From: Nitrospinales bacterium
Lineage (GTDB): Bacteria > Nitrospinota > Nitrospinia > Nitrospinales > VA-1
Length of the DNA stretch: 64,000 nucleotides
NCBI GenBank assembly: GCA_965223795.1
Contig: CBDCXL010000002.1
Location: 706,596 to 770,595, forward strand
Direction: 5' to 3'
Shown: positions 17,157 through 47,134 of the stretch, in pieces
How positions within the stretch are numbered: the first letter of the stretch is position 1
How the letters are laid out: each line of letters begins with the position of its first letter
Notes under the pieces: model-generated
The model's database searches: none
What the model saw: the letters and a program-made list of their open reading frames with translations, nothing else
What the model was told of the DNA's origin: nothing
Program-made: the position numbers and the translations under genes

Positions 17157-20100
17157 TCATTTTGCGGTGTAGGACACCAGTTCGTATTCCTCCGCATCGT
17201 TTGGAGCGGTGCGCGGAGGGTTGCGGAAATCCGGCTCCACCACCAGTTGAAGGCCGTCTTCACGCTGCCCGGCCGCGCGGATTTCGACGCCATGTTCGCT
17301 GTCGGCGAGCAGACCGAGCCTGCGCATCTGGCTGGGCGAAACGCGCAGCGTGTAGCGGCCGGGAGGCACTCGGGCAAAGAGGAAGCCGCCGTCGTAGGCG
17401 GATCGCACGCTCTGGACCACGGCCGCTTCTTCCATTTTAAGTGGCAATTTAAACCGTTCGATCAGCCGGGGCCGCTGCCCGGAGACTGCGGAAGTGAAAA
17501 ATTCCCGCTCCCGCATGTGGTGGAAATCGATCTTTCGGGCGATTTCGCCCTCGCTGTCGATGTAATGGCGCAGGGTTTGCCGTTTGAGCCGCTCTTCCAG
17601 CTCGTCGCGCTGCTTCACCAGCTCGACCTTCACGTTGGCGGCGGCGCGGCGGGACGCGCCGTGGCCGAGAAACACGCTGCCGCCAATCTCTCCGGTCGGG
17701 ATGACGGGGAAATTGATCAGGGCCGGGCTGCCCGGCCGGGGGACCACTTCCATGCCTTCGCGGGCCAGCATCCAGAACGGGTCCTCCAGGCTGGCCTGGT
17801 CCACCGACAGGGAAACCGGCTGGTAGCTGGCCAGTCCGGGCAGAAACGCCAGTCCCTGCCGGTCGGTGCGCACGCTGCGGGTGCCCTCCTGCACCTCGAT
17901 GTTCTCCAGCGGCTCGTCGGCCTCGTCGAAGGCGCCGTTGTGGTTCTTGTCGAGAAATACCCGCGCCGAGGCGGCTCCCTGGGTGGCCATGCGGTCCGCC
18001 AGCACCACCCAGCGTTTGCCGCGCGGCTCGCGCCCGAGGCTGAAGGTGAGCGAGGAGCCGAGCGCATAGTCGCCCTCATCGGAATAACTGCCCTCCATGC
18101 CGAGCGCGAACATGGGGAACCGGCGGTTGAGTCCGGCGGAATAGATGGTCTCGCGCTCGCCGTTCAGGATCCGGTCCACGGTGAGGCGGGTGCTCAGGTT
18201 GCGGGTCAGGTCGTAGTCGCCGGTCACCGAGGTGCGGGTCAGTTCGGTCACCGGCTCGATGCCGTAGTCGAGCGCGCCGCGCAAGGACAGTCTGAGGATG
18301 CGCCCGTTGGCGAGCAGGGTACCGTCGCCCTGGGTGAACGGCTCCTGCTGGCCGCCGCGGTTGAGAAACCAGTTTAAGGTGTTGGAGACGGAGACGCCGC
18401 CGAAATACATGGAGAGCCGGTTGGACAGGTCGATCTCGACGCGGCCGGATTCGCGCCGGTCCAGTTCGCCCTCGATGGTGATGGGAATGCGCGGCAGAAA
18501 GAAACCGGGGACGGCGCTGTCCAGCCTGAGGTTGGTGGTGCTTTCCAGGGGATCGGCGGCGCGCGCCACCCGTTCGCTGACGAAATCGAAAAAATGCCCG
18601 TGCTCCAGGAACAGGTTGACGCCGAACAGATCGGTCAGTGTCGCGATCTGCGCCGCCGTCCCGCCCTTGTCGTCCCGGGTGACGCCGAGGCGGGAAAACG
18701 CGCCGCCCAGCGAGGCTCTCAGTCCGAGGGTGCCGTAGTTCCTGCGGTCGCCCTCAAACGGCAGGCTGGCGATATTGCCGGCCACGGAAATGTGGCGGCT
18801 CAGGCCGCGCTCGTATTCGGCGAAGTAGCGCGCCCTGCCCTTTTCGGGTTCGAGCGAATTTGCATCCTCGCCCACCTGCACGAGGTCCTGTTCCTGAAAA
18901 TTGCCGGACAGCCGGAAATACTGCCGGCCCGCCCGCACCTGTTCCTCACCCACGAAGATGCGGCGGATGGTCTCGCGTTTCTGTCCCTGCGGACCGTAGA
19001 ACACCAGACGCAGGACGTTGGAACCGAACAGCAGCGGCACGTCGAGGAATTCGAAACGCCCGTCGGCGTTGGGCGTCACCTGGGAATCGAGCAGCACTTC
19101 GTTGCGGTACAGCTCCACCTGCCAGCCGACGGAAAGCTCGCCGCGCAGGTTGATGCGGTCGAACTCGCCCTGCCGGTAAAACGGAAAGCTGGAAATTTCA
19201 AACCCGGCTCCGGAGCGGCTGTCCGCTACCAGCGGCAGCTGCGGGTTGAAGATGTCTCCGAGCGCGAACTCGCGTGCGGAAAGCGGCCCGAACAGGCCGC
19301 CCTCGGGGTCCTTGCGCCCCAGCCGCAGGCGTACGTCGGATAACGAATCGCGTTCGTCTCCGGCCAGGAACACTTCGGAATCCATGTACAGCACATCGCC
19401 CGCAAGCAGCGCGCTGTACAGCGACTGCGCCTGGTCCTCTTCGCTCTTGTAGTTGAAGTCGTAGCTCAGGTCCATGGAAGGCCAGTCCAGTATTTTGTAG
19501 GGCGGCCGCACGCGCGGAAGCGAATCCGTTTCGGGCTGGCGTTTCGTTTCCTTCACTTTCTGCTGCCGGACCAGGCGGTTTTCCAGCAGCAGCGGTTCGT
19601 GGTTGAGGATCTCGATTTTCAGGCTGGACAGGTTGAACTCGAAATCGAGGGGAAACCAGCGGCTGAGCAGGGAGGTGTGGACGTACAGATCCTGCGGGCG
19701 GCGTTCCACGAGCCGGGTGTTGAGGGGAGAGCGTTTCCCCTCGACGGTCGCGGTGCCGTCGTTGAGATCGAGATAAAAGGCGCGGTTTTCGTTCTGATAC
19801 CAGCCCCAGGCGAAGCCGCTTTGCGGATCGACGGTGATCCCCCATTCGAGCAGAAACGCCAGCTCTCCCAGGGGCAGCAGCAGGCCCTCGCGGTGCAGGT
19901 GGCCGACCAGGTTTTCGCTGAGGATGAAATCGCGCAGGCGCACCTGCAAGACCAGCGGCGCCGTTTCGGAGCGATCGAACACGCTTTCCTGCTCTCCTGC
20001 GCGGAGGGCGCGCTTGCTCACGACGGGCGGTGCCTTCTGGCCGGGTGCCGGACTTTCCCCGCCGGATCGTTCTCCTGCACGGAGGGCGTGTTCGCTCGCG

Positions 20101-20414
20101 ACGGACGGCGCTTTCTGGCCGGGTGCCGGACTTTCCCCGCCGGATCGTTCTCCTGCGCGGAGGGCGTGTTCGCTCGCGACGGACGGCGCTTTCCGGCCGG
20201 GTGCCGGACTTTCCCCGCCGGATCGTTCTCCTGCGCGGAGGGCGTCTCCGCTTCCGCCGGGCGGCGGTCCGGTGCCATCGGGGCGCGCGGGTATCGCTTC
20301 GCTGCCTGCCCCGCCTTTGCCGGGCGCACCGGCGGCGGCCTCGGGATGGGCAAACTCCGCCCTTCCCGCCGTCAGGACAAATAGCACCAATGCGATGAGC
20401 GCCCGAAACCGCAT
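17157..20414 (-). CDS. Usher-like outer-membrane fimbrial biogenesis protein with C-terminal carboxypeptidase-regulatory-like domains
   Basis: Signal peptide; GWQVELYRNEVLLD...VPLLFGSNVLRLVFYGPQGQ; beta-rich barrel region; RVFLDKNHNGAFD; downstream of the chaperone and pilin genes. Confidence 0.75.
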   Translation of the reverse strand: MRFRALIALVLFVLTAGRAEFAHPEAAAGAPGKGGAGSEAIPARPDGTGPPPGGSGDALRAGERSGGESPAPGRKAPSVASEHALRAGERSGGESPAPGQKAPSVASEHALRAGERSGGESPAPGQKAPPVVSKRALRAGEQESVFDRSETAPLVLQVRLRDFILSENLVGHLHREGLLLPLGELAFLLEWGITVDPQSGFAWGWYQNENRAFYLDLNDGTATVEGKRSPLNTRLVERRPQDLYVHTSLLSRWFPLDFEFNLSSLKIEILNHEPLLLENRLVRQQKVKETKRQPETDSLPRVRPPYKILDWPSMDLSYDFNYKSEEDQAQSLYSALLAGDVLYMDSEVFLAGDERDSLSDVRLRLGRKDPEGGLFGPLSAREFALGDIFNPQLPLVADSRSGAGFEISSFPFYRQGEFDRINLRGELSVGWQVELYRNEVLLDSQVTPNADGRFEFLDVPLLFGSNVLRLVFYGPQGQKRETIRRIFVGEEQVRAGRQYFRLSGNFQEQDLVQVGEDANSLEPEKGRARYFAEYERGLSRHISVAGNIASLPFEGDRRNYGTLGLRASLGGAFSRLGVTRDDKGGTAAQIATLTDLFGVNLFLEHGHFFDFVSERVARAADPLESTTNLRLDSAVPGFFLPRIPITIEGELDRRESGRVEIDLSNRLSMYFGGVSVSNTLNWFLNRGGQQEPFTQGDGTLLANGRILRLSLRGALDYGIEPVTELTRTSVTGDYDLTRNLSTRLTVDRILNGERETIYSAGLNRRFPMFALGMEGSYSDEGDYALGSSLTFSLGREPRGKRWVVLADRMATQGAASARVFLDKNHNGAFDEADEPLENIEVQEGTRSVRTDRQGLAFLPGLASYQPVSLSVDQASLEDPFWMLAREGMEVVPRPGSPALINFPVIPTGEIGGSVFLGHGASRRAAANVKVELVKQRDELEERLKRQTLRHYIDSEGEIARKIDFHHMREREFFTSAVSGQRPRLIERFKLPLKMEEAAVVQSVRSAYDGGFLFARVPPGRYTLRVSPSQMRRLGLLADSEHGVEIRAAGQREDGLQLVVEPDFRNPPRTAPNDAEEYELVSYTAK
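19993..20244. repeat. 78-bp in-frame tandem repeat, 3 units plus a partial fourth
   Basis: Units start at 19993, 20071, 20149 and 20227; encode ALRAGERSGGESPAPG(R/Q)KAPSVASEH on the minus strand. Confidence 0.95.
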
Positions 20415-20433
20415 GCAGACCGCCTTGAACCGA

Positions 20434-21309
20434 TCAGGGTACCGGAATCCGCGCTTTGGCCAGGACGGTCCCGCCCTCTTCCCGGCGCTCGCGGTAAACC
20501 ACGTGCAGGCTGCCCCGCTCCGGCCGCATGCCTGCAGGAAAGTTCAAGGGAATCTTCAGATGGCGGCTGGCGTTGGGGGCGTAGACCGAAAGCCCCCCTA
20601 CCTGCCCCACCTTCATGCGCCCACCCTGCTTGTCTTTGAAGAATATGGATATGTCGCCAAACACCGACCGGTTGCCTTTGCGCAGAATTTTCGCGGACAA
20701 CAGCGGCGGCGCTTCGTTCGAATCTGTGGATTCCAGGCTCAGGTCGGCAAGGCCCACCTTCGCGCTGAGGTCGCCGTGACGCACGATGACCGGTATGGAG
20801 ATCGCCAGCACCGCCACGAAGCGGATCTTGAGCTCGTCGCTGGCGAGTGTGGTGCGTTCGATGTCCTCGCCCAGGGTCGGCGGCGGCAGGCTCTGGAAAA
20901 AAAGGTGCGACCGGTATTCACCGGGTTTCAGGCCCTGCGGTTTGCGGGCCAGCAGGCGGACCGAACGCGAACTGCGCGGCGGCACGGTGATCTGCCGCGG
21001 CGCGAAGCGGATGAACTCGGCGGCGAATTTCTCTCCCGGGGTTCCGTGCGCGACTTCCTGATAAGCGCCGTTTTTGTCCATGCGCAGGTTTTTGAAGAAC
21101 ACGCGGTAGGTCATCTCGCGGTTGGAGTTGTTGTGCAGCACCACCTCACCGGTGCGCTTGTCCCCTTCCAGCACGATCCGCTTGGGCCGCACGCTGATGC
21201 CGCCCAGCTCTCCGGCCTGCGCGACCTCCACGAGCGCGCACAGCGTGAACATGCACAGCATGTTCACGCAAAATACCGGGATCGCTGCATTGCCAAAGCG
21301 TTTCTTCAT
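20434..21309 (-). CDS. PapD-like periplasmic pilus assembly chaperone
   Basis: ISVRPKRIVLE, IRFAPRQITVPP, GEYRSHLFF, ISIPVIVRHG and GNRSVFGD motifs; signal peptide. Confidence 0.82.
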   Translation of the reverse strand: MKKRFGNAAIPVFCVNMLCMFTLCALVEVAQAGELGGISVRPKRIVLEGDKRTGEVVLHNNSNREMTYRVFFKNLRMDKNGAYQEVAHGTPGEKFAAEFIRFAPRQITVPPRSSRSVRLLARKPQGLKPGEYRSHLFFQSLPPPTLGEDIERTTLASDELKIRFVAVLAISIPVIVRHGDLSAKVGLADLSLESTDSNEAPPLLSAKILRKGNRSVFGDISIFFKDKQGGRMKVGQVGGLSVYAPNASRHLKIPLNFPAGMRPERGSLHVVYRERREEGGTVLAKARIPVP

Positions 21310-21347
21310 GTAGCTCCTGAAGGACTGGTTGCGCCGTGAAGCTGAAT

Positions 21348-21836
21348 TCAGTTGTAGTTCGCCGTCAATATGTATTCGCAGATGCCGTCGCCGCTGGCGC
21401 CGGCATGCACTTTGAGGTGTCCGCCGATGCGGATGCTGTTGGCGGAAACGCTGCTTTCGGTCTGCACGTCTGTGAGATCGGTTCCCGGCACGGTGCAGGT
21501 GCCTTTGAGAGGCTCGGCGGTGACGTTGAACTGCACGCCCGAAGCGAGCACGCTGCCTGTGGACTGTCCGTGCAGGAAGCGGCCGTCCCCTTCAATGCCC
21601 AGCTGCAATCCGCCGCTGGGCGTGATTGCGAATTCCTGGATTCCGGAGGAAGGCGGCTGGATGACGCCGAAATCGAGCGGCGCGGTTTCGATCAGCGCCA
21701 CCGGCTCGGGGCCGGGTGCAAAGGCGGACGTGTATAAATCCGGAGAGGCGGCGCGGAATCCCGTGCCGCCGAAAATGAAAACGCTCACACCCAGAACCGA
21801 TGCCATGATTGTTTTTTTGAATTTTGGGACGCTCAT
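21348..21836 (-). CDS. DUF4402-like putative pilin subunit
   Basis: Signal peptide, PLDFG motif, C-terminal IGGHLKV...LTANYN and two Cys; first gene of the chaperone-usher trio. Confidence 0.7.
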   Translation of the reverse strand: MSVPKFKKTIMASVLGVSVFIFGGTGFRAASPDLYTSAFAPGPEPVALIETAPLDFGVIQPPSSGIQEFAITPSGGLQLGIEGDGRFLHGQSTGSVLASGVQFNVTAEPLKGTCTVPGTDLTDVQTESSVSANSIRIGGHLKVHAGASGDGICEYILTANYN

Positions 21837-21915
21837 GGTGGGAATTTCCTTTTAAATAAAATTTAAAAAGGATCTCAATAATTCGAAATTTCTCTGTCTG
21901 GCAAATCGCGGCCCC

Positions 21916-22384
21916 TTAATGAATGAGGGGCGCTCGCGGCCAAACGCTATTATTTGAGGCACCCTGCAATTGATTGTCACCCCAGGACACGTTCGCCGGG
22001 TTCCGCGAATTGGAATGCAGGCTGCCCGGCGCTCCGTCCTGAAACAGGCTGCGGCCGGGGGTTTCCTTTTGCACCAGATCGTTTTCCAGAGCCTGATAAG
22101 CCTCTTTGAGCAGACGATGGAATTTCTGTTTTTGCGGATGGGTCCGCACCACGTTCGGCATGCGTTTGGGAAACGGGGGAAAGGGTTTCATCATCTCAAA
22201 TCCTCGTCAGAAGGAAGAACAGGAGGCCGTGGACTATCAGGGAAATGAACAGCCAGGCCGGTTTCAGCGGATCGATTTCGAAAAGCCAGGAGGTGGACAG
22301 GTTCTGCTTCAGGGCCAGCGCGCCTTTTTCGTGCCAGGATTTTGGCTCGCATTCCGCCGGGGTGGTTTGAGGGAGATCGTTCAT
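21916..22384 (-). other. Two small adjacent ORFs (22196-22384 with a TM helix; 21916-22194), possibly one frameshifted gene
   Basis: TM segment LFISLIVHGLLFFLL ends the first ORF; the second ORF starts immediately after in another frame. Confidence 0.35.
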
Positions 22385-22800
22385 GATGGGTCAGGGGCTG
22401 AGGTTAGTGAGTTTGAGGCCGGGCGGATGCGATCGGCATCGCCGCTTGCGGGCCTCGTTGAACCGGGACGTTCGATGCTGCGGCTTAAATATCGCGTTCA
22501 CTTCAATTAGATTTTCATTGAATTTCTTCTTATTTCATTTAGATTTACACGCGCCCGAATACTTTACAACTTTCAATTAAAATTACAATAGAAAAATTAA
22601 TAACTTATATAAAATTATTAAAATTTGTTTAAATTTAAACACAAGATCAACACGAAGCCCCACTCCTGCGGTCCAGGAGTCAACGCATTGATTTTTTTGG
22701 GAAATTCAGATCAAAAGAAAATCAGGAAAAAAGCAGGGGAGTTTTGGTCCGATGGTATGCGCGGGCGTTTGGCCCGGTCAGGCGGGTGTTGGGGATGCGT

Positions 22801-23169
22801 TCAACCGGCTTTCGCGCGGCCGGGAGCGGCTTCCTCCGCGATCGTGGGGGGCGCGGCGGTGAAGCGGTAGCTGCAATCGGAGATGTCCGGCGGCTCTGTG
22901 GGATAGCGGTGACAAAGAAGCGGTTTTTGCGGGCTGTTGTGCACCCGGCAGGCGTTGTCGGGGCCGAGTTGTTCACAGGGAATATCGAGCGAATAAAACA
23001 GCAGGTTGTTTTCCACGTCCTCGCCGACCACGCGGATGCCGCGGTAGCTGAGATAGAGAGCCAGTTCTTTGAGGCTGCCGTGCTGCCTGAGGGTGAGATC
23101 GCGCACGGCGGTGATGTTGACGGAGCGGCAGCATTCGCCGCACTGGTTGCACTCTCCGGTTCGATACAA
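22801..23169 (-). CDS. YkgJ-family (CxxCxxCC) Zn/Fe-S cluster protein
   Basis: CNQCGECC...CEQL...CRVH...CHRYP; TTG start behind AGGAGAGGGG. Confidence 0.8.
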   Translation of the reverse strand: MYRTGECNQCGECCRSVNITAVRDLTLRQHGSLKELALYLSYRGIRVVGEDVENNLLFYSLDIPCEQLGPDNACRVHNSPQKPLLCHRYPTEPPDISDCSYRFTAAPPTIAEEAAPGRAKAG

Positions 23170-23213
23170 GACCCCTCTCCTTTCTGCCAGAGCACCCGGC
23201 CCGGCAGACGCTG

Positions 23214-23609
23214 TTATTTTTTCTTTTTGCGCGCGGTTTTCGGTTTTTTCCCGGCCTGCGGGTACTCGACGGTGACGCTGGTGTGGATGCCGCCGCGCAC
23301 GTTGAAATCGCCGGTGACGGTCAGTTTGCGGGGTTTGAGCACTGTGACCAGGTCGTCCGAAATCTGATTGATCACCTTTTCGTGAAACCCTCCCTCGTTG
23401 CGGTAGGACCACAGATACAGCTTGAGCGATTTGAGCTCGACGCACCAGCGGTCGGGGATGTAGGCGATCTCCACCACCGCGAAATCCGGCTGCCCGGTCT
23501 TGGGGCAGAGGCAGGTGAACTCCGGGCATTCCATCTCGATGGTGTAGTCCCGGTCGGGATGCGGGTTCAAAAAAACTTCCAAATCGTTAACCTCTTTATT
23601 TTTAGACAT
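23214..23609 (-). CDS. queF: NADPH-dependent 7-cyano-7-deazaguanine reductase
   Basis: [28 protein letters not shown] and RGGI motifs. Confidence 0.96.
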
Positions 23610-23654
23610 TTATATATTTTTTCCTGTTTTTTCAGATTTTTTTACCAGGTCACC

Positions 23655-23715
23655 TTGACATTGGAAATCAGGATTTTATGGTATAGTGTCAGCACTCGCA
23701 TCCGGTGAGTGCTAA
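23655..23715 (+). promoter_or_regulatory. sigma70-type promoter plus CIRCE (HrcA operator) for groESL
   Basis: TTGACA at 23655; TGgTATAGT at 23679; TCAGCACTC-N9-GAGTGCTAA at 23689-23715, one mismatch to the CIRCE consensus. Confidence 0.9.
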
Positions 23716-23871
23716 GACAACGGCGATCCCAACGGTTGCGAACTTATGGAAAACCCCGGCAAATTATTGAATATTCATAACTTAAGTTCAAAACCCACAT
23801 TCTTGCCCCACTCCGGGGCTGTCTCAATCCAAGACCCCAAAGTCTAACATTTTTTCTTACGAGGAGTGATT

Positions 23872-24162
23872 ATGAAAATCCGACCATTGCAAGACCGTAT
23901 CCTGTTGCAGCCCATCCTGGAAAAAGAAGTGCGCAAGGGTGGCATCATCATCCCCGATTCCGCCAAGGAAAAGCCCATCGAAGGGCGCGTCAAAGCCGTG
24001 GGCAAGGGAAAAATCGGTGAGGACGGCAAGCACATCCCCATGGATGTCAAAGTCGGCGACAAGGTCCTGTACAGCAAATACGGCGGAACGGAAGTCAAGA
24101 TCGACGGCGAGGAATTCCTTCTCATGAGAGAAGACGACATTTTGGGCATCATCGAAAAATAA
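23872..24162 (+). CDS. groES: Co-chaperonin GroES
   Basis: [10 protein letters not shown] and [13 protein letters not shown]; GAGGAG SD. Confidence 0.98.
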
Positions 24163-24217
24163 CCCGTTTTAAAAACCGACAACGTCAAATACATCCCCTT
24201 CAAGGAGAGTTACCTAA

Positions 24218-25876
<1,659 letters not shown>

Positions 25877-25908
25877 GCCCGTTTCGCCGAGCAAGCCTGT
25901 AAATCAAG

Positions 25909-25941
25909 ACCCCCGGCCGGAATCCCGGCCGGGGTTTTTTT
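25909..25941 (+). terminator. Intrinsic terminator after groEL
   Basis: CCCCGGCCGG-aatc-CCGGCCGGGG followed by a T run. Confidence 0.85.
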
Positions 25942-26171
25942 GTGAGTTTTCTCACAACCCGCCGGTTTTTTATGAGTTGACAGGGGACCGCCCAATTAGA
26001 GTATAATTAATGTAAGTAGTTTAAAATTCAAGCGGTTCCGGGCATTGAGGGTCGCCGTTCGATCCCGGGGGGAGAAACCGGCCTGAGTTTGATTTTCTTT
26101 CCGCTCGCACCTCGTCTTCAGCGCAATCGATTCTACCGCTCCTGCCGCCTGTGTGAACCCTATCGGAGCTT

Positions 26172-27407: not shown

Positions 27408-27439
27408 CCGGCCTTGCCGCCTGAAGGAGGCGTCACAGC

Positions 27440-28621: not shown

Positions 28622-28651
28622 CCGCTTTGGCGATCGCCGCCCTCCCCTATT

Positions 28652-35540: not shown

Positions 35541-35554
35541 CCCCTTAGGCACGG

Positions 35555-35631
35555 GGGCCCATAGCTCAGTTGGTTAGAGCCCCCGGCTCATAACCGGGTT
35601 GTCCCAGGTTCGAATCCTGGTGGGCCCACCA
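35555..35631 (+). tRNA. tRNA with CAT anticodon, most likely tRNA-Ile2 (lysidine)
   Basis: Cloverleaf GGGCCCA/TGGGCCC, anticodon loop CT-CAT-AA, GGTTCGAAT, encoded CCA; the paired G1-C72 excludes an initiator tRNA; position after rpoD. Confidence 0.92.
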
Positions 35632-35747
35632 ATCCTGCGCGGATGGCGAGTTTGCTCACGACGCGCAGTCCTTTTTGATTTCGGTTCGAACTTTTTCTCC
35701 CGGCCTCGACCAATCCTGCGCGGATGGCGAATTTGCTCACAAAGGGC
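35628..35747 (+). repeat. tRNA-linked direct repeat, period 81 bp
   Basis: ACCAATCCTGCGCGGATGGCGA(G/A)TTTGCTCAC at 35628 and 35709, 31/32 identical. Confidence 0.92.
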
Positions 35748-35800
35748 AAGGACGTTTTACCGGAACTACAGACGGTTTCTGCATAAAAATCATCGAAATC

Positions 35801-35838
35801 AATGGGTCGCGGTTCAAATCGCGGCCCATTTTTTTTTG
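35801..35838 (+). terminator. Intrinsic terminator after the tRNA and its repeats
   Basis: AATGGGTCGCGG...TCGCGGCCCATT followed by a T run. Confidence 0.75.
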
Positions 35839-36126
35839 GAAGCATTCAACCACACTTCCCAATCCATTCTTTTTTATTAAGGAAAAACAGGAGAGCCGCG
35901 CGTATAGATATTATCCAGGCGTTGACGGGAATCCCGGTTGTGACTTGGAAATGAACTCATCCAAGAAATATGCAGGCTACTTTCTTTCGTTGCGGCATCG
36001 ATTTCCGGATTTTGAAGTTGCCGCTCATTATCCTGCAGGTGCCCCCGCCCATAAGCCTGATTTCGGGTTAAGCCGGGAATAGATTTTTTTCCATGTCTCA
36101 ATCGATTTATCAATCACCCGCTACGC

Positions 36127-37650: not shown

Positions 37651-37734
37651 AATCCCACCCCTAATAGTTAACAACGTTCCATGCAGCCATCACGAATCTT
37701 CCATAGAATTCTTTACTGAACCTGACGAAAACGA

Positions 37735-37782
37735 AAAATATCCGGCCTCTATTAAATTGAAAAAGAGGCCGGATATTTTTTT
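37735..37782. terminator. Hairpin / terminator
   Basis: AAAATATCCGGCCTCT ... AGAGGCCGGATATTTT inverted repeat. Confidence 0.7.
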
Positions 37783-37783
37783 G

Positions 37784-37972
37784 TCAGGCTGCCATTTTCC
37801 ATTCTTGTTTGTCTTGATTCTCATTCGTTACCGGGTTGTCGAGCGGCACCCTGTAGCCGCCTTTTCGGATTTTCTGATAAATCAGTTCACCTGTGAATGC
37901 GATGGCAATGATCCCGACAAGTGCAACCGAAAATACGTTAAAAATGGATACATTCATCAGAAATTCAAACAT
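37784..37972 (-). CDS. Small single-TM hypothetical protein
   Basis: 62 aa, one hydrophobic helix, strong AGGAGG SD. Confidence 0.65.
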   Translation of the reverse strand: MFEFLMNVSIFNVFSVALVGIIAIAFTGELIYQKIRKGGYRVPLDNPVTNENQDKQEWKMAA

Positions 37973-38403
37973 TGCTCATTCCCTCCTTTGATGAACAAGA
38001 AAATAAAAACAGTTGCCAAGGCGAGGCAATCCGCTCTTGGCTTGTACCGGTTGTCTTTTAATTCAATAAAATGAGAAAAAGGCTATGGCAAGCTTGGAAA
38101 AGTAAAATTTTTTTAATTTGATTCTATGATTGGATGTCCGAAAGGCACTGAGCAGGCACGGAAGGCGCGCGGTGGATGGAAATCTTGATCCCGAAAAAAT
38201 TAAAAACTTTTAATATTCTTGACTTTTAAAAAAGCGATTTTATCTCTCGCACAACAAAACAATTGCCCGGGAGGGCGGCGGCGAAAAACATTTTAATACC
38301 TTAAATTCAACTACTTAAAGGGGATAGCGAATTCGCTCAATACTGTTTTACTTAAACTGTTTTTCGCGCCTCATCATTCAATATTTTTCATCGGAGGTTT
38401 GTC

Positions 38404-38709
38404 ATGAAAAAGCTGGTGGTTCTGATGATTGCAGCAGCATTTTGCGTCGTTGGTTCAGGAGTCGCTTTGGCAGATGAACCTGCACCCCTTGAATGGGATC
38501 GTCATGCAGTTTGGACCAAATGGTCTGAAGAAGACGGCAATCGCTCTCCGGATAAGCCAGGCACCATGGAAACTCCTTCTGGCGCCAAAGAGAATGTGAC
38601 GATTCACACCACAAGCAATATGGATCGGACGGACTTTGTTTCCGGGTTCGATTTCATACGAGAAACCAAGGAATATGATTATTCAAGAGAAAAGGGGAAT
38701 TCTGCCTGA
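38404..38709 (+). CDS. Small exported hypothetical protein
   Basis: GGAGG SD, MKK...ALA signal peptide, terminator at 38742-38773. Confidence 0.8.
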   Translation: MKKLVVLMIAAAFCVVGSGVALADEPAPLEWDRHAVWTKWSEEDGNRSPDKPGTMETPSGAKENVTIHTTSNMDRTDFVSGFDFIRETKEYDYSREKGNSA

Positions 38710-38982
38710 TTTGAGTCTTGCTTCGTTGGTTTGAATAATTGAGCGGCTTCTCCTTAGGAGAAGCCGCTTTTTTCATTGTTTCTCAAATTTATATTCAATG
38801 AATGGATGCGGGATAAAAGTAATACAAATATCATGCTGCACAATGAGTTTAATAAAAAACTGCTTCTTTTGACTGTTATCTTAATAGTCGTGTCCTACAT
38901 CTATACAAGCTGGTGATTCATTCAATTGCATGAAATTGGCCTGCCTTTGTCAATCACACCGGCTTTCAGTTCAGTGATTCGA

Positions 38983-40494
<1,512 letters not shown>

Positions 40495-40657
40495 GGCGCG
40501 ATGGCTCCCCGTTGACGTCGTTGGCTGTAGCGATATTTCGTCACTCCCCCGGATTCTAGCACGATATCTCATCAATAGCGATTTTTCGCGACAACGCCAC
40601 ACCCGCCCAAAACCAGCCAACTCAATATATTTCAATGATTAATTTGACCACCGCCCG

Positions 40658-40674
40658 CTGGCACGCAACCTGCT
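40658..40674 (+). promoter_or_regulatory. sigma54 -24/-12 promoter
   Basis: CTGGCACGCAACCTGCT, near-consensus. Confidence 0.85.
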
Positions 40675-40734
40675 CTACCCCCTTTTAGAAAACAGACGCA
40701 AGTCCAACTTCAATTTGATTCGGAGGTTAAAACG

Positions 40735-41472
40735 ATGACGCAGAAAACCAAAACCGCATTGATCACCGGAGCCTCGAGCGGCATCGGTCTCGACGCCGCC
40801 AAGGGGTTCCTGGCAAACGGATTCAACCTGGTGCTCAACTCCCGCAGTGCGGAAAAGCTGGAGGAAGCCGCGCTGTCTTTGAACGCGGTGAACCGCATCG
40901 CCCTGGTCGCGGGCGACATCGGCGACCGCACGACCGGGGAACGAATGGTCGCCGCCGCCGTCGACCGCTTCGGCGGTGTGGATGTGCTGGTGAACAACGC
41001 CGGCATCTTCGGGTTGAAGCCGTTTTTGGAAAACACCGAGGCCGACCTCGACCGCTACATCCACATCAACCTCAAGGGCACGTATTTCGTCACCCAGGCG
41101 GTGGTGCGGCAGATGAAAAAGCAGGGCGGCGGCAACATCGTCAACATCGGCACCGTCCTCATCAACCATTCGATGGCCGGGCTTCCCGCCAGCGCCGCGC
41201 TGATCACCAAAGGCGGCGTGCACGCGCTGACCACCAGCCTGGCGAGCGAGCTGGCGGCGGATCGTATCCAGGTCAACGCCGTCGCTCCGGGCGTGATCCG
41301 CACCCCCATTTACGGCGATTCGGATATGGACGCGTTCGGCGGCGTCGCCCTGATGAACCGTGTGGGCGAAGTGCAGGAGATCACCGACGCGGTGCTGCAT
41401 CTGGCCACAGCGAGTTTCACGACCGGCGTCATTCTGCCGGTGGACGGCGGCTACGTCAGCGGCCGCAACTGA
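40735..41472 (+). CDS. Short-chain dehydrogenase/reductase
   Basis: TGASSGIG, VNNAG and VNAVAPG motifs; catalytic YxxxK replaced by ALITK. Confidence 0.92.
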   Translation: MTQKTKTALITGASSGIGLDAAKGFLANGFNLVLNSRSAEKLEEAALSLNAVNRIALVAGDIGDRTTGERMVAAAVDRFGGVDVLVNNAGIFGLKPFLENTEADLDRYIHINLKGTYFVTQAVVRQMKKQGGGNIVNIGTVLINHSMAGLPASAALITKGGVHALTTSLASELAADRIQVNAVAPGVIRTPIYGDSDMDAFGGVALMNRVGEVQEITDAVLHLATASFTTGVILPVDGGYVSGRN

Positions 41473-41501
41473 ACCGAAACAATTCCCAAAGGAGAAAGAC
41501 C

Positions 41502-41849
41502 ATGAACCCGAAACAAGCCACAGCCAGTCATGAAGTCCGACAGGTCCACGATGCGGATTTCGAATCCTCGGTGATCCAGTCCGGCAAACCGGTGCTGGTG
41601 GATTTCTGGGCGGACTGGTGCCAGCCCTGCCATCAGATCGCTCCCGCCGTGCAGGCGCTGGCGGAAGAGTACGGAGACCGCGTCCGGGTGGCGAAGCTGA
41701 ACGTGGACGAAAATCCGGCGAGCGCCGCGAAATACGGCATCCGCAGCATTCCCGCCCTGCTGCTGTTCAAGGACGGGCAGGTCGTCAAACAGATGGTGGG
41801 CGTGCGGCCCAAGCAGGAAATCGCGCGCGGCATCGAAGCGCATCTCTGA
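41502..41849 (+). CDS. trxA: Thioredoxin
   Basis: VLVDFWADWCQPC and YGIRSIP motifs. Confidence 0.93.
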   Translation: MNPKQATASHEVRQVHDADFESSVIQSGKPVLVDFWADWCQPCHQIAPAVQALAEEYGDRVRVAKLNVDENPASAAKYGIRSIPALLLFKDGQVVKQMVGVRPKQEIARGIEAHL

Positions 41850-41906
41850 TCCTTTCCAAGTCGAACAAAACCAAATACAAATCCTTAACAGAAAGGAAAA
41901 CACAAA

Positions 41907-42269
41907 ATGAAAACAGCTATCGTTGTACTTTCCGATCCTAAAAACGGCTCCGAGGAATCGCTGGGCCGCGTCTTCAACGCTCTGGCGGCGGCATACGATT
42001 TCAAGAACGCCGGCAAAGACGTTTCCATCCTGTTTCAGGGCGCAGGCACCCGCTGGCCGGAGGTTCTGCAGAAGGAGGACCACCCCGCGCACGATCTGTT
42101 CGAGGCGGTGACGGACAAGATCGAAGGCGTGTCCTGCGCCTGCGCGGAAGTGTTCGGCGCCGACACCACCGGTTACGACCTCATCAAGGACAATTCGGTT
42201 CCGAAAACCACCGGCCTGCCCAGCCTGAGCAAACTGCAGGAACAGGGTTACAACGTGCTCACTTTCTAA
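41907..42269 (+). CDS. DsrE/DsrF-like protein
   Basis: GRVFNAL, FQGAGTRW, SCACA and GYNVLTF motifs. Confidence 0.75.
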   Translation: MKTAIVVLSDPKNGSEESLGRVFNALAAAYDFKNAGKDVSILFQGAGTRWPEVLQKEDHPAHDLFEAVTDKIEGVSCACAEVFGADTTGYDLIKDNSVPKTTGLPSLSKLQEQGYNVLTF

Positions 42270-42341
42270 CAACCGGACACCCCCCTGCCTCAAGCAGGGG
42301 GTGTTCGATTCTCACACACTTAGAGGAAAGGACGGCGCACC

Positions 42342-42911
42342 ATGACTCAGAATTTCACCGAACTCGCGTTCACCGATGGTGTCAAAGCGCAGCAGGAAAA
42401 ATACGGCACACGGCCCTCATATGCAAAAATGGAGACGGCCGGGGACTTCCGCAACCGGCTGACCTGGCAGGAGAAAGGTTACATCGAGGGCCGGGACGGA
42501 TTTTACCTGGCCTCGGCCGGGGAAAACAGCTGGCCTTACATGCAGTTTCGCGGCGGCCCCAAAGGGTTTCTCAAAGTGCTGGACGAACGCACGCTGGCCT
42601 ACGCCGATTTTCGCGGCAACGGGCAATACATCAGCACGGGGAATCTGCTCGACAACAACAAGACGGTGCTGTTCCTCATGGATTACGCCGGGCAAAAACG
42701 GCTCAAGGTCTGGGCGGAAGCGAAGATCCTGGACGCCGCGGAGAATCCTAAGCTGCTGCAACAGGTCGTCGATCCGCAGTACGACGCGAAGGCCGAGCGT
42801 ATCGTCGTGCTCAAGGTGCAGGCGTTCGACTGGAACTGCCCGCAGCACATCACGCCGCGGTTTACGCAAGAAGAAGTGGAAAAGCGGCGGGTCGAACAGA
42901 TACACTCTTAA
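42342..42911 (+). CDS. Pyridoxamine 5'-phosphate oxidase-like FMN-binding protein
   Basis: WPYMQFRGGPKGFL, ADFRGNGQYISTGNL and FDWNCPQHITPR motifs. Confidence 0.9.
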   Translation: MTQNFTELAFTDGVKAQQEKYGTRPSYAKMETAGDFRNRLTWQEKGYIEGRDGFYLASAGENSWPYMQFRGGPKGFLKVLDERTLAYADFRGNGQYISTGNLLDNNKTVLFLMDYAGQKRLKVWAEAKILDAAENPKLLQQVVDPQYDAKAERIVVLKVQAFDWNCPQHITPRFTQEEVEKRRVEQIHS

Positions 42912-42961
42912 AGCGACAACACCTTCATGCACGCATCCAGCCGATTCAGGGATCCATCGCC

Positions 42962-43375
42962 ATGATCGTCATCCGAAAAATCGACCACATCGTGCTGCGC
43001 ACCGAAAACCCGGACGATTTGATCGCCTTCTACCGCGATGTGCTGGGCTGCGCGGTCGAACGGCAACTGGGTAAAGAAGTGGGCCTCACGCAGCTTCGTG
43101 CCGGTGAGTGCCTGATCGACATCGTCGACGTCAAAAGCGAACTCGGCAGGACGGGCGGCGGCGCACCGACTTCAGGCGCAAACAATCTGGATCATTTCTG
43201 CCTGCAGGTGGAGCCGTTCGACGAAGCGGCGCTGATCCGTTATTTACAGGAGAAACAGATCGCAACGACGGAGTTTGTGACGCGCTACGGCGCCCAGGGC
43301 AATGGCCGCTCTATCTATATTGAGGATCCGGACGGCAACACGGTCGAGCTGCGCGCCGCAAAGTCCGGCGGCTGA
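42962..43375 (+). CDS. VOC/glyoxalase family protein
   Basis: IDHIVLR, NLDHFCL and IYIEDPDGNTVEL motifs. Confidence 0.92.
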   Translation: MIVIRKIDHIVLRTENPDDLIAFYRDVLGCAVERQLGKEVGLTQLRAGECLIDIVDVKSELGRTGGGAPTSGANNLDHFCLQVEPFDEAALIRYLQEKQIATTEFVTRYGAQGNGRSIYIEDPDGNTVELRAAKSGG

Positions 43376-43493
43376 ACCGCGTTTTGATGCTGCGGATTCT
43401 CATCCGCGGCGATTCAAGCTTCTCTGAAAAGAAGACGATCAATCAGTAGACGAATTTTTTAGCGGCAAGAGCAGCACAACCCGCGGATACAGC

Positions 43494-44297
43494 ATGAAGA
43501 ACAGTCCGGAATACGAGCAGACACGGGTCGAGTTTGAAGAGGAATGGTCGCGCAGCGACATCGAAGACCTGCTGAAGACCAACGATTACCCGCGCGCCCG
43601 GCAGGAGCGGGATCTTTACGAATCCTTTCTGCCCAGGGGTGAACTCATACTGGAAGCGGGCTGCGGCCTGGGTCCGAAAGTCCTCTACTTCCGCGAACAG
43701 GGCCACCGGATCGTGGGGCTGGATTTTGTTTTCTCCGCGTTGAACCGGCTCAAGCGTTTTCGCGCGGACCTGCCTCTCGCCTGCGCCGATGTGCATCATT
43801 GCCCTTTTCCGGACAACACATTCGGGGCCTACCTTTCCTACGGCGTGGTCGAGCATTTTCCGGACGGTCCGGAGGAAGCGATCCGGGAAGCCCGCCGCAT
43901 CCTGAAACCGGGCGGCGTCCTTTTGATGATGGTTCCGGCGGACAATGTTTTGAGCCGGTTCATTCATGATCCTGATAATGTCCTCAACCGGCTGCGTAAG
44001 AATCCCTGGATTCGCCGCATCGCAGGAAAACCCGGCATTGGCGGCGCGCACGATCACGATTTATACATGAAGCTGCACAGCAAACAGGAAGTGCGCCAAA
44101 TTTTAGCGGCCGCTGATTTCCAAATTGAAGTTGAGGCGCCGGTGTCTCACAGTTTTTCACTGTTCATGCTTTGCGAGTGCTTTCAAAAAGACGCCCTGGG
44201 TCAGACCACCCGAACGGCAGAACGCATCGCCGCCATTCTGAAAAAAATCGCCCCCTGGGGCACGGCCAATCACCTGCTCTTCGTTGCCAGGAAATAA
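43494..44297 (+). CDS. Class I SAM-dependent methyltransferase
   Basis: ILEAGCGLG, GVVEHF and RILKPGG motifs. Confidence 0.9.
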   Translation: MKNSPEYEQTRVEFEEEWSRSDIEDLLKTNDYPRARQERDLYESFLPRGELILEAGCGLGPKVLYFREQGHRIVGLDFVFSALNRLKRFRADLPLACADVHHCPFPDNTFGAYLSYGVVEHFPDGPEEAIREARRILKPGGVLLMMVPADNVLSRFIHDPDNVLNRLRKNPWIRRIAGKPGIGGAHDHDLYMKLHSKQEVRQILAAADFQIEVEAPVSHSFSLFMLCECFQKDALGQTTRTAERIAAILKKIAPWGTANHLLFVARK

Positions 44298-44305
44298 AAA
44301 TAGTT

Positions 44306-45037
44306 CTACATCGCAGCCACCGCTTGCCGCCCCCTCTCCCAGAGCCGCCACGCCACAGCCAGGTTGATCAGCACGAGCAGGGGTACGCCCATCATGGACG
44401 CGACCGACATGGGATAGGTGAGCACGGCGAGGGAATCCGGAGTGCCGGTGAACACCTGCAGCGGGCCGGGCATGCCGAGCTGCAGCATGATGGGCGCCGC
44501 GGGCACGATGACCCCAAAACCGATCGCGTTCCAGATCAGGAAGCCTCGCTGGCTGAGTTCCCCCCGCCGGGCTTTGACCGCGATAAAGATCGCGGAGATG
44601 CCGAACAGCAGATCGGGAATGCCCACGGCGATTTCAAAAGCGAGGGGAAACTGCCCGGTAAAGGTTTTGTATGTGGTGCCGAGCGCCGCCAGCCGGATGG
44701 CGTGAAACCAGGCGAACACATGCCAGGGCGTGTCGTCCACGATGCGGCGGATGCCGCTGCGAACACGGCCGAACAGGATCACCGGGGCCGCGATCGCGGT
44801 GACGGGGATCAGCTGCAGCCAAAATCCCGGCAGCCAGGGAAGCAGATTTTCGGAAACGTACATCCCCCGCGATCCGGCCCAGACACTCACAAAACCACAA
44901 AACACAATCCACAGGAAATAAGCATAGACGGGCCGCACCGCCTCCGAGACCCGATCGCGCCGGCCGCTGCGCCACGCGACGGCAAACAGAAACGTCCATT
45001 CCAACGCCAGCAGTAAAAAAGTTGAGGAAAATTTCAT
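44306..45037 (-). CDS. Multi-TM hypothetical membrane protein
   Basis: About 6 hydrophobic segments; GGGAGGG SD. Confidence 0.8.
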   Translation of the reverse strand: MKFSSTFLLLALEWTFLFAVAWRSGRRDRVSEAVRPVYAYFLWIVFCGFVSVWAGSRGMYVSENLLPWLPGFWLQLIPVTAIAAPVILFGRVRSGIRRIVDDTPWHVFAWFHAIRLAALGTTYKTFTGQFPLAFEIAVGIPDLLFGISAIFIAVKARRGELSQRGFLIWNAIGFGVIVPAAPIMLQLGMPGPLQVFTGTPDSLAVLTYPMSVASMMGVPLLVLINLAVAWRLWERGRQAVAAM

Positions 45038-45085
45038 GACCGCCCTCCCCTCAGACAGAATGCGTTTTCAATTCCACTCATTTAA

Positions 45086-45126
45086 GTGCATATGCACACA
45101 TTAGGAGCATATACACCTATATTCAA
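45086..45126 (-). promoter_or_regulatory. sigma70 promoter with two operator-like palindromes
   Basis: Minus-strand TTGAAT-17-TAATGT; GTGCATATGCAC (45086-45097) and GAGCATATACAC (45105-45116) flank the -10. Confidence 0.6.
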
Positions 45127-45364
45127 AAAAACAAGGCTTTTTTTGTTGTCAATATTCAGCAAAAATTTTTTACGAAACGATTCCGCCATGTTGCAGAGGA
45201 AGCAAACCAGCCGGGCTGACGTTTTTAAAATGGCGGGAACCGGACTGCGAAGACGACTGCGCCGGAGCGCATTCTCCGGTTGCGATTTCAAAAACCGCAC
45301 CTATCTTTTAATTAGGAATTGCGACGTCCCACACTTCATCGACAACCCATCTTGAGGCTCCCTC

Positions 45365-45748
45365 ATGGAACTCGCACTCGTTGTGGAAAAGATCGTCGGC
45401 TACCTGTATTTCATTCTCGGCTGGTCGTTGCTGCTGCAGAAACGCTTCTGGATACAGCTCGTCCGGAATTTCGACCGCCAGTCCCTGTCGCTGCCGTTTT
45501 CGGCTCTGACCGGGCTCATCATCGGTCTCACGGTGGTGACGGTGCACAATATCTGGACGGCGGACCCGTCCGTGCTCGTCACGCTCATCGGCTGGATCGC
45601 GGTGTTGAAATCGACGCTGTTTCTGCTGGCGCCGGATGCCATGCTCGGATGGATCCCCGGCGAGCGCGCCGTCGCGAATTACTGCACGTTCGGCGGCGGT
45701 GCGGCGATCCTGCTTTCTTCCTGCATCCTGTACGGCGCGTATTACTGA
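45365..45748 (+). CDS. Small 4-TM membrane protein
   Basis: Four hydrophobic helices; HNIW...VTLIGW motif. Confidence 0.8.
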   Translation: MELALVVEKIVGYLYFILGWSLLLQKRFWIQLVRNFDRQSLSLPFSALTGLIIGLTVVTVHNIWTADPSVLVTLIGWIAVLKSTLFLLAPDAMLGWIPGERAVANYCTFGGGAAILLSSCILYGAYY

Positions 45749-45756
45749 ACGCCGGT

Positions 45757-46077
45757 TCAGGACGCCGCTTTCGCCAGCTTGTGCGGGTTGCGGTTGGGGC
45801 AGGTCTTGTCGCTGCAGCGGTCGGGGATGGTCTTGGTGCCTTCCACCATGAGCGCGCCGCATTTCTTCCCGCTCTTGCGGACGTGACCGCATTTTTTCCC
45901 GGTGGGTTTTGTCTCCGTGTAGAATTTGCACCTGGGTTTGGTGTCGGCGTCGCATTTCCAGATGACGCCGAAGCGCCCGCGTCCCGGCGCGAGCACGCCT
46001 TTTTTGCAGACCGGGCATTTTATGTCGCTGGGTTTCAGCTCGCCGCTCTCGATGGGACAAGCGTATTCTTTCGCCAT
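45757..46077 (-). CDS. Stand-alone topoisomerase I-type C4 zinc-ribbon protein
   Basis: CPVC...GRFG...C...C and CG...CGALMV...C...C; GGGAGA SD. Confidence 0.75.
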   Translation of the reverse strand: MAKEYACPIESGELKPSDIKCPVCKKGVLAPGRGRFGVIWKCDADTKPRCKFYTETKPTGKKCGHVRKSGKKCGALMVEGTKTIPDRCSDKTCPNRNPHKLAKAAS

Positions 46078-46256
46078 GACGTCTCCCGCGGTTTCATTCT
46101 GCCGGGCGCATTTCGGTCTCGGCCCATAGGCCGTATCGGAGCGCGGATGCCCGGGCAAGGAAATTTGATTTTGCTTTCGGATTAGTGCTAAATAGGGAGT
46201 CCGCTCCCGGAGTCCACGCTATCGCGTCCCCTGTTTTTTGATGAGGAGATTGTATC

Positions 46257-46670
46257 ATGGCGGAGCCGCACCGCAGGCGTTTCTCACTCGACGAGGTGAA
46301 GATCGATCCGCGCCTCAAAAACCGAATCCTGTCCGCCGACGGCGATGAAGAAGTCGGGGCCTGGGACGGCGAGAAGATCGAGGATCTGGTGACGGAGCTG
46401 GACCGCATCGAGGAACGGGTCGATGCGAATTACGCCGGGCTGCCGCACAACGAAAACATCCCCGAGGATCTGCGCGATCAGGTGGAGAAGGACCTCCCCA
46501 TCTGGGCCTGCGACAAGGCGGGGAACTGCCTGGTGGGCGAAGGCGCGACCAAAATCCGCAGCGTCGAGCAGATCCGCGCACACTACGATAAGAAATACGG
46601 CGGCGTCGACAAGTTCAAGGAGAAGCTGCGTAAGGAACGCGAGGCGCTGATCGCGCGGTTGAAGCAGTGA
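46257..46670 (+). CDS. Hypothetical protein
   Basis: GAGGAG SD; host-like codon usage. Confidence 0.8.
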   Translation: MAEPHRRRFSLDEVKIDPRLKNRILSADGDEEVGAWDGEKIEDLVTELDRIEERVDANYAGLPHNENIPEDLRDQVEKDLPIWACDKAGNCLVGEGATKIRSVEQIRAHYDKKYGGVDKFKEKLRKEREALIARLKQ

Positions 46671-46714
46671 CCGGGCGTTTTTATCGCAGCGTTTCTCCAT
46701 CCCAGACTGAATTC

Positions 46715-46789
46715 GGGCGCGTAACTCAGTGGTAGAGTGCTGCCCTCACATGGCAGAAGTCACAGGTTCGAACCCTGTCGCGCCCACCA
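46715..46789 (+). tRNA. tRNA-Val(CAC)
   Basis: Cloverleaf GGGCGCG/CGCGCCC, anticodon loop CT-CAC-AT, GGTTCGAAC, encoded CCA. Confidence 0.96.
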
Positions 46790-47134
46790 CTCGCCGTGGA
46801 GGCGGCTTGCTGACGACGCGCTGGATTCTCTGAGTTTGTGCCGTACGTTTGCTCCGGGCCTCTCCTCCTTCGCGGAGGGCGGGTTTGCTCACGTCGCGCG
46901 TTGCCCACTGTGTATAAGGGCGCAGTCTTAGGCCCCGTCCCCACTCCTTCGCGCAGGGCGAACCTGCTCACGTCGCGCGTTGCCCACTGTATAAGGGCGC
47001 AGTCTTAGGCCCCGTCCCCACTCTTTCGCGCAGGGCGAACCTGCTCACGTCGCGCGTTGCCCACTGTGTATAAGGGCGCAGTCTTAGGCCCCATCCCCTC
47101 TCCTTCGTGCAGGACGGATTTTCTCACGTCCCGC
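46790..47134 (+). repeat. tRNA-linked tandem array of 75-79 bp units (5 cores)
   Basis: Unit starts at 46790 (degenerate), 46865, 46944, 47021 and 47100 (partial); the three middle units are nearly identical. Confidence 0.93.

Follow-up and report, generated by a model that had tools for sequence, protein, structure and literature searches.

Why should one short sequence recur on the same strand directly behind two tRNA genes and again within a protein-coding gene, each time in a small array of units of about 80 nt? The question is raised by a 64,000-nucleotide stretch of the genome of a Nitrospinales bacterium (assembly GCA_965223795.1, contig CBDCXL010000002.1; hereafter the window, C2:706596-770595 of a two-contig genome of 3.92 Mb that we label G000, with contigs C1 and C2), in which a first-pass annotation described a conserved 34-nt core at three loci and regarded it as a dispersed element, not annotated so far, whose units are of fixed length. 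Our results support that description, with a unit length that is roughly constant, and the best explanation of the three loci is that they are copies of a single Nitrospinota-restricted family of small non-coding units, arranged head-to-tail at the immediate 3' boundary of genes. Several properties go beyond what was first described: the family is not specific to tRNA genes, it opens with a covarying 5' hairpin, its tRNA-linked units carry what look like decayed tRNA 3' ends, and its copies lie almost entirely on one strand.

A search of the window with the IUPAC core of the first-pass annotation, allowing up to 3 mismatches, recovered 7 matches (19995, 20151, 35633, 35714, 46866, 46945 and 47022), all on the + strand, against an expectation of 0 from 100 shuffles, which bears out the recurrence of the core at three loci. 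The copies at 20073, 20229, 46791 and 47101 are more diverged, yet in register, and a recount reproduced the hand-counted identities of 30/34 (19995 versus 35633) and 29/34 (19995 versus 46866). Tandem Repeats Finder delineates arrays at 19993-20266 (period 78, 3.5 copies, 91% matches) and at 46865-47134 (period 79, 3.4 copies, 89% matches).

Examination of the two tRNA loci reveals how closely the units adjoin the genes. The first tRNA gene (35555-35631, +; ARAGORN and Rfam), downstream of the end of an rpoD-like open reading frame (ORF), has the anticodon CAT and encodes its CCA at 35629-35631; it had been labeled tRNA-Ile, whereas ARAGORN calls it tRNA-Met, and Met and Ile2 are indistinguishable from sequence. 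Flush with this CCA is an 81-nt unit 1 (35632-35712, +), comprising a hairpin ATCC-TGCGC-GGAT (35632-35644), the core box, a T-loop-like GGTTCGAAC and an end ...CGACCA, and it is followed by unit 2 (35713-35790, +), which retains an intact 5' module and has diverged in its 3' part. Contigs from four sequencing runs include two that carry this array with an identical pair of units, one of 3714 nt (run X1) and one of 781 nt (run X4), and none of the listed contigs from the four runs bridges the second tRNA-linked array. The latter lies behind tRNA-Val (CAC; 46715-46789, +; ARAGORN and Rfam), the CCA of which is encoded at 46787-46789. The adjacency of both arrays to tRNA genes stands as first described, but the Val array does not begin directly after the CCA: its unit 1 (46787-46864, +) overlaps it, the hairpin CCAC-TCGCC-GTGG (46787-46799) having the tRNA's own CCA as its 5' strand. 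Units 2-5 (46865-47140, +) start at 46865, 46944, 47021 and 47100 with periods of 77-79, and the last of them is decayed.

The third array (19994-20266, +), with 3.5 units starting at 19994, 20072, 20150 and 20228 at a period of 78, lies antisense within an ORF for a large secreted protein of 1085 aa (17157-20414, -), where it translates in frame as 26-aa repeats behind a signal peptide. The in-frame array within a protein gene is as first described. The label 'usher' attached to the gene is not supported by Pfam searches of the protein, which found no Usher family and only sub-threshold matches to CarboxypepD_reg and SdrD_B.

Whole-genome searches demonstrate that these arrays belong to a dispersed family. 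An nhmmer profile built from 11 window cores gave 43 matches at E<0.05 in the same genome, at 23 loci that are all on contig C2, and whole units compared by blastn-short match their own array and, elsewhere, only cores of 28-34 nt, in agreement with the earlier view that the parts between cores are locus-specific. Of 120 Nitrospinota genomes surveyed, 20 contain the core exactly or with 1 mismatch (the reversed control gave 0). The window's family accounts for 13 of these carriers among its 69 genomes and a second family for 6 among 21, the latter all from one genus. Core copies per carrier genome range from 1 to 88, with genome G058 the extreme at 88 and the other matching genomes at 1-14. 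A species-representative genome collection contains the 20-mer GGAGGGCGNNTTTGCTCACG without mismatch in 68 stretches, of which 57 are labeled Nitrospin- and 2 'Nitrospirae bacterium' with full units present, while 9 are singletons from unrelated phyla, a number to be read against a chance expectation of about 17 in 596 Gb by our own arithmetic. At the gathering thresholds of Rfam 15 the two tRNAs were the sole matches in the window, and even at E<=10 the element falls outside the catalogued families: at both tRNA arrays the 5' module was matched by nothing, no ribozyme or tRNA-like family appeared, and weak hits at 35713-35842, all below gathering scores, cover the diverged 3' part of unit 2 and the terminator behind it. 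The core had no match in plasmid, phage and viral collections. No published description of the repeat was found in the literature searched, which did not extend to supplements that might hold repeat tables, and a text search of the Nitrospina gracilis genome paper found no mention of such repeats.

The unusual part is a flush gene-end rule that spans RNA genes and protein genes alike. Distances measured in the window's genome with a crude self-made gene caller demonstrate that at 7 loci the first unit begins 0 nt after a co-oriented stop codon, and that 5 RNA genes are likewise followed by their first unit at 0 nt. Among 133 copies assembled more widely, 14 lie at 0 nt from the stop of an ORF that has the same orientation and at least 90 codons, every other distance being represented by at most 3, and 15 lie at -1 or 0 relative to a tRNA or transfer-messenger RNA (tmRNA) end called by ARAGORN; in the window's genome itself, a unit stands flush behind 6 of the 28 + strand tRNA/tmRNA genes. 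The three bases before the element in 123 unique copies are most often TGG (27), CCA (24), TGA (15) and GCA (5), the TGG being the end of another hairpin module. Where the CCA is not encoded the element begins after the discriminator, and where it is encoded the element begins after the CCA or includes it as a hairpin strand. The trailers of tRNA-Leu(CAG), tRNA-CAT and tmRNA bear the element in several genera. The protein genes upstream are ordinary ones (LRR, DnaJ-MORN, cytochrome c, MsrAB, DUF4399, MoaA); likewise, the Pfam-matched flanking genes examined are of ordinary cellular types, with no integrase or transposase among them. At one further site (G000:C2:1888190-1888225) a tRNA 3'-end-like stretch (...GAATCCCGCCTGCGGCACCA), which may be a tRNA remnant, stands before a unit where no tRNA is called.

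The part of the unit common to all loci is its first 35-45 nt, the rest of each 75-86-nt unit being locus-specific (observed lengths are 75, 77, 78, 79, 81 and 86 nt). This 5' module consists of a 4-bp stem with a 5-nt loop (CTCC-N5-GGAG) followed by a near-invariant box GGCG-NN-TTTGCTCACG. When 90 copies are aligned, 22 columns are invariant or at least 90% conserved, and the hairpin is paired in 96.7% of its cells, with two-sided changes at all 4 pairs; since these copies were selected through the GGAG...box motif, the covariation is muted. All four hairpin pairs are formed in 32 of the 43 profile matches of the window's genome, and five fully complementary stems were observed, namely CTCC/GGAG, CCAC/GTGG, ATCC/GGAT, CTCT/AGAG and CCGC/GCGG. 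An antisense partner RNA was considered and rejected, there being only 5 reverse-strand 10-mers outside the element's own copies, 4 in coding sequences (CDSs) and 1 outside called genes, a chance-like result. Separately, a variant module (CTCCTCGCCGGAGGGGCGG...) is repeatedly nested directly behind GCTCACGCCG of another copy (G000:C2:1271180-1271253, 2474721-2474797 and 3225755-3225821; also loci L001, L018, L042 and L072), which suggests a preferred internal junction.

Units of the arrays linked to tRNA or tmRNA genes bear a T-loop-like GGTTCGAAC in their 3' part and terminate in ...CACCA; to judge by its sequence, this part looks like a decayed tRNA end running from the T-loop to the CCA. 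The resemblance to the cognate gene is closest at the tRNA-Leu locus of L050, where unit end and tRNA end agree at 14 of 16 positions, and at the tmRNA of the window's genome (12 of 16); the unit behind tRNA-Leu(CAG) also reproduces the TTCAAAT T-loop of that tRNA.

Comparison of orthologous sites demonstrates that the arrays turn over, as filled and empty sites occur side by side among related genomes and unit number differs at the same site; the copy-number variation envisaged earlier is thus found. At the LRR-gene site 3 units are present in the window's genome, 2 in its congener G001 and none in G007 and G017, which have a spacer of 5-40 nt. At the DUF4399 site the window's genome has 2 units and G001 about 1.5, in rearranged form, both arrays being flush with the TGA and sharing the same downstream end base. 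The repeat region of about 100 aa in the 1085-aa protein is missing from its orthologues in G001 (81% aa identity) and G017, and the G001 gene has a 12-nt element-like string at the unoccupied spot; by this comparison the in-gene array is a lineage-specific in-frame insertion. The host gene had been read as part of an usher/chaperone/pilin trio (17157-21836, -), for which all Pfam hits are sub-threshold (CarboxypepD_reg, Fn3-like and DUF4402). At the LRR-gene site of G006 (L098, G006:C107, ~1607-1900) there are instead two units of about 100 nt belonging to an unrelated repeat, which begins directly after the stop with a CTCC...GGAG hairpin (TGA|CTCCCCACGGGAG).

What, then, might the units do? 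At the tRNA-CAT locus both are followed by an intrinsic terminator with a 13-bp stem and a T run (35801-35840, +), which places them inside the tRNA transcription unit. Under a loose definition, a terminator-like site is present within 260 nt after 12 of the 23 arrays, against 66 of 300 random gene ends, and one array stops just ahead of the Shine-Dalgarno sequence and start codon of the next gene. Transcription, processing and function of the units we infer from such context, and the reading to which we give about even credence is an RNA-level role as a co-transcribed 3' trailer, with hairpin and box as a processing or stability site and with arrays that change by local duplication. The units would be transcribed with the upstream gene, as a 3' trailer or 3' untranslated region, ahead of the real terminator, and would act as RNA, the hairpin that abuts the mature 3' end and the conserved box together marking a site of processing or stability. 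In tRNA-linked arrays the tRNA-like unit ends could let the tRNA 3'-end machinery excise pieces of about 80 nt; for one E. coli tRNA-linked repeat RNA, RNase processing guided by the repeated end has been proposed (PMC8144298). Growth and shrinkage of arrays would proceed via local tandem duplication or unequal crossing-over, and new loci would be established rarely, by some recombination step that needs no dedicated transposase.

Several observations weigh against this role as a trailer. It leaves unexplained why 42 of the 43 matches in the window's genome (22 of 23 loci) are on the + strand, and likewise why none of the 21 - strand tRNA/tmRNA genes is flush with a unit; the exact placement of the first unit at the gene end is also unaccounted for. 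Four loci of this genome lie behind an oppositely oriented gene and one array is antisense in a CDS. Two further candidate helices are weak, with 84% and 80% of cells paired and little covariation, and six units fold no better than shuffled sequences (z -1.17 to +1.16). Finally, the match between unit ends and cognate tRNA ends is weak overall, with a mean of 8.5 versus 8.0 for non-cognate pairs out of 16 positions (permutation p=0.088, n=15), and no copy of the gene end was found in CDS-linked units.

A role as an RNA trailer and a strand-specific form of DNA mobility are not mutually exclusive, and the second of these is possible, if on balance not probable, as the primary explanation. The family would then be chiefly a non-autonomous mobile element, moved in trans by some host- or element-encoded enzyme that acts on one strand (for instance on a hairpin in single-stranded DNA), with any RNA effect a by-product. 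Such mobility would fit the lineage-specific insertions with empty sites in relatives, the element-like 12-mer at the unoccupied site of G001, the burst to 88 copies in one genome versus 1-14 elsewhere, and the nesting of the element in and beside other repeat modules. It would also fit the placement of 42 of 43 copies on a strand that is G-enriched throughout: in every 150-kb bin of C1 and C2 third codon positions are richer in G on the + strand (strand effect +0.03 to +0.12), the enrichment persists on both sides of dnaA after the coding-strand effect is cancelled, the frequency of C at third positions is 0.46 in - strand genes versus 0.39-0.40 in + strand genes, and 694 11-mers show a strand asymmetry of at least 6:1. 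A skew of one strand across a whole chromosome is unusual. Replication direction was considered as the cause of the one-strand placement of the copies and rejected: dnaA is located, together with a step in GC skew, at C2:1.6 Mb, and + strand copies occur on either side of it. In relatives, 15 of 23 copies are on the locally G-rich strand, a tendency that points the same way but is not significant, with 8 of 11 among copies at which the skew is larger than 2 standard errors.

Against primary mobility stands the structure of the units themselves, their termini showing, by inspection only, no obvious complementarity that would make terminal inverted repeats, and the search for a responsible enzyme. 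A long target-site duplication was rejected, cognate ends being no better than non-cognate ones at CDS-linked loci and weakly matched at tRNA loci. Y1_Tnp (PF01797) has 0 matches in the carriers G000, G001, G007, G013, G060 and G061, and core copies are absent beside existing Y1 genes at 9 loci in other genomes, so that a reading based on IS200 or on REP-associated tyrosine transposases (RAYTs) fails. Cas1 (PF01867) has 0 matches in G000, G001, G007, G010, G013 and G017, that is, in 6 of the 7 carriers searched, and the would-be 'spacers' are 89-97% identical within an array rather than unique; CRISPR arrays and casposons are rejected on these grounds. The sole RVT_1 gene (G000:C2:2638669-2640255, +; 529 aa) encodes a reverse transcriptase domain fused to a trypsin-like peptidase, and may be of the defence type; among 31 genomes its reverse transcriptase part is found only in the window's genome and in the non-carrier G029, which argues against a retro-element. 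The genome has 6 tyrosine recombinases (PF00589), none adjoining an array. The trans-acting enzyme proposed by the first-pass annotation has thus found no candidate, since none of Y1_Tnp, Cas1, the one reverse transcriptase and the tyrosine integrases tracks the repeat. As for its statement that the window holds no transposase, integrase or cas gene, Y1_Tnp and Cas1 are missing genome-wide and the 6 tyrosine recombinases lie outside the window, though a check of the whole window for transposase and cas genes was not made. The absence of the core from the plasmid, phage and viral collections likewise speaks against a mobile element.

A more ambitious proposal, which we regard as rather unlikely, is an 'end-seeking' module of a new kind. 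The module would either be cut precisely as RNA at its own 5' edge, by itself or by a conserved RNase that reads the hairpin and the GGCG-NN-UUUGCUCACG box, or be a mobile DNA, confined to one strand, that finds the precise 3' boundary of genes with no transposase of a known family. If true, such a cut would set where tRNAs, tmRNA and mRNAs alike have their 3' ends, and the one-strand orientation would be linked to the genome-wide enrichment of G on the same strand.

Taken by itself, a catalytic or enzyme-guided RNA cut at the 5' edge, in which a self-cleaving ribozyme or the substrate of a structure-specific RNase such as RNase P or Z creates the mature 3' end of the upstream gene, is distinctly unlikely. 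The boundary is flush irrespective of what precedes it (discriminator, CCA, TGA or TAA), the 20-nt box is near-invariant in two families of the order, a CCA that serves as hairpin 5' strand is accompanied by the matching change in the 3' strand, and the unrelated G006 repeat likewise starts TGA|CTCC..GGAG, all of which such a cut would accommodate. It is opposed by the absence of any Rfam ribozyme or tRNA-like family at E<=10, by folding no better than that of shuffles, with the one 4-bp helix alone covarying, and by copies that are non-flush or run antisense to the gene at their locus. None of the units is recognised as a tRNA by ARAGORN, and RNAalifold found almost no consensus structure in 26 full units; with folding no better than in shuffles and helices 2 and 3 weak, a tRNA-like or ribozyme fold was rejected.

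The ends of the tRNA-linked units, which look like copies of tRNA/tmRNA 3' ends, also recall the attachment (att) sites of integrative elements, for which tmRNA and tRNA-Leu genes are classical integration sites. That the arrays are att scars left by elements that used tRNA/tmRNA 3' ends is nevertheless very improbable. Eight arrays of the window's genome stand behind protein-gene stops with no duplication of the gene end, unit length is uniform, and the flanking genes examined are housekeeping or unassigned, none being an integrase or transposase. No tyrosine recombinase lies beside an array, and the two that adjoin tRNA genes (Thr-CGT and Pro-GGG) do so at tRNAs without units; phage, plasmid and viral collections again gave no match.

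Translation of the repeats, as C-terminal extensions through stop read-through or as small coupled ORFs like those of mycobacterial repeat units, is barely credible: variable core positions 6, 18, 30 and 33 fall in one codon phase in frame with the upstream stop, TGA is followed by C at 6 of 7 flush stop codons in the window's genome, one 3-unit array seems by eye to be open in one frame, and the in-gene array is read in frame on the opposite strand, but the unit lengths, from 75 to 86 nt, are not divisible by three throughout, tRNA/tmRNA genes precede half of the flush copies, and the phase argument comes down to four positions (p~0.04 by our own arithmetic) that the reverse frame fits equally.

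Among described systems, the closest kinds appear to be the tRNA-linked repeats (TLRs) of E. coli and modular repeats of the BOX or mycobacterial interspersed repetitive unit (MIRU) type, which by analogy offer the best-supported description of the family. The TLR comparison, already made by the first-pass annotation, is the best known match. In the parts of the source drawn on here, E. coli TLRs (Egan and Landy 1978, Rudd 1999) lie directly downstream of tRNA/rRNA genes in the same transcript, with one to five units per locus, each closing with 18-19 bp that reproduce the upstream tRNA's 3' end exactly, and most are without an assigned function (PMC8144298). Like them, the Nitrospinota units are flush behind tRNA/tmRNA genes (six in the window's genome and 15 of 133 copies overall). 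Unlike TLRs as portrayed in those parts, their copy of the tRNA end appears decayed, being clear at 2-3 of 15 loci (overall p=0.088), all loci have a conserved 5' module of 35 nt in common, and units also stand flush behind protein-gene stops and once inside a CDS. They furthermore resemble no E. coli genome in sequence: searched by blastn against 5,426 of these, the two tRNA-CAT units gave no match at E<=0.01.

The pneumococcal BOX elements resemble the family in being modular small repeats with an internal module in tandem arrays that vary in size between strains, located in transcribed intergenic regions where open reading frames can arise (PMC3049150, in the portions used). They differ in having terminal inverted repeats and target-site duplications, neither seen in the Nitrospinota units (by inspection, and at CDS-linked loci, respectively), and no flush gene-end rule is reported for BOX in those portions (PMC3049150). 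MIRUs, as described in the excerpts consulted, share short tandem units between co-oriented genes with a boundary exactly at the gene boundary codon, but are placed at start codons with a gene-coupled internal ORF (PMC12548453, citing Supply et al. 1997), whereas the Nitrospinota units abut stops and tRNA ends. The latter also have no consistent reading frame and are not consistently multiples of 3.

Repetitive extragenic palindromes (REPs) and the bacterial interspersed mosaic elements (BIMEs) built from them are GC-rich, hairpin-bearing extragenic repeats in 3' untranslated regions, often in inverted pairs, and are mobilised by RAYT (Y1) transposases, whose genes they typically flank. The Nitrospinota units are likewise GC-rich, hairpin-bearing, extragenic and 3' untranslated, and one metagenome-assembled genome joins the core with REP-like palindromes (CCAGCGTGACGCTGG); in contrast, they are head-to-tail on one strand, their hairpin has only 4 bp, and no Y1_Tnp gene is present in the window's genome or in the congener G001. 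From miniature inverted-repeat transposable elements they are set apart by the want of obvious terminal inverted repeats and of a target-site duplication at CDS-linked loci. With Rickettsia palindromic elements they share an array in frame in a protein gene, tolerated in a linker region, but this placement occurs at 1 of 23 loci and no obvious long palindrome is seen in the units by inspection.

Some further features of the surroundings may be recorded here. Arrays occur near oxidative-damage repair genes (msrA, msrAB, AhpC/TSA-like, photolyase and SelO) at G000:C2:1197000-1204000, 2473900-2474600 and 3224500-3225800, possibly by chance, and a small GIY-YIG gene stands behind one of them. A second repeat family opens with a palindrome CCAGCGTG(A/C)CGCTGG followed by ACCC... 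(G000:C2:1013745-1013850 and 1013920-1013990); at tRNA-Phe the CCA of the tRNA provides its first three hairpin bases, and in G058 (e.g. L021, L025 and L041) it lies directly before or after the core module, giving mosaic repeats. The window itself holds two other tandem arrays, both unrelated to the core, at 55287-55468 (period 80, 2.3 copies, 78% matches) and at 62186-62497 (period 138, 2.3 copies, 93% matches).

Small interspersed repeats are common in bacteria, and few have a known origin or role. The positional rule of this family is unusually sharp, in that a covarying hairpin is set at the very next nucleotide after the functional end of both RNA and protein genes. In practical terms, the arrays break short-read assemblies at tRNA genes, and their variable unit numbers might serve for strain typing of the Nitrospinaceae. 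The Nitrospinota, a phylum of environmental importance that has been little studied, are the main nitrite oxidisers of the sea. If the rule reflects insertion specificity, it would point to an unrecognised targeting mechanism; if it reflects RNA processing, the family would point to a 3'-end-forming signal common to tRNA, tmRNA and mRNA in this phylum.

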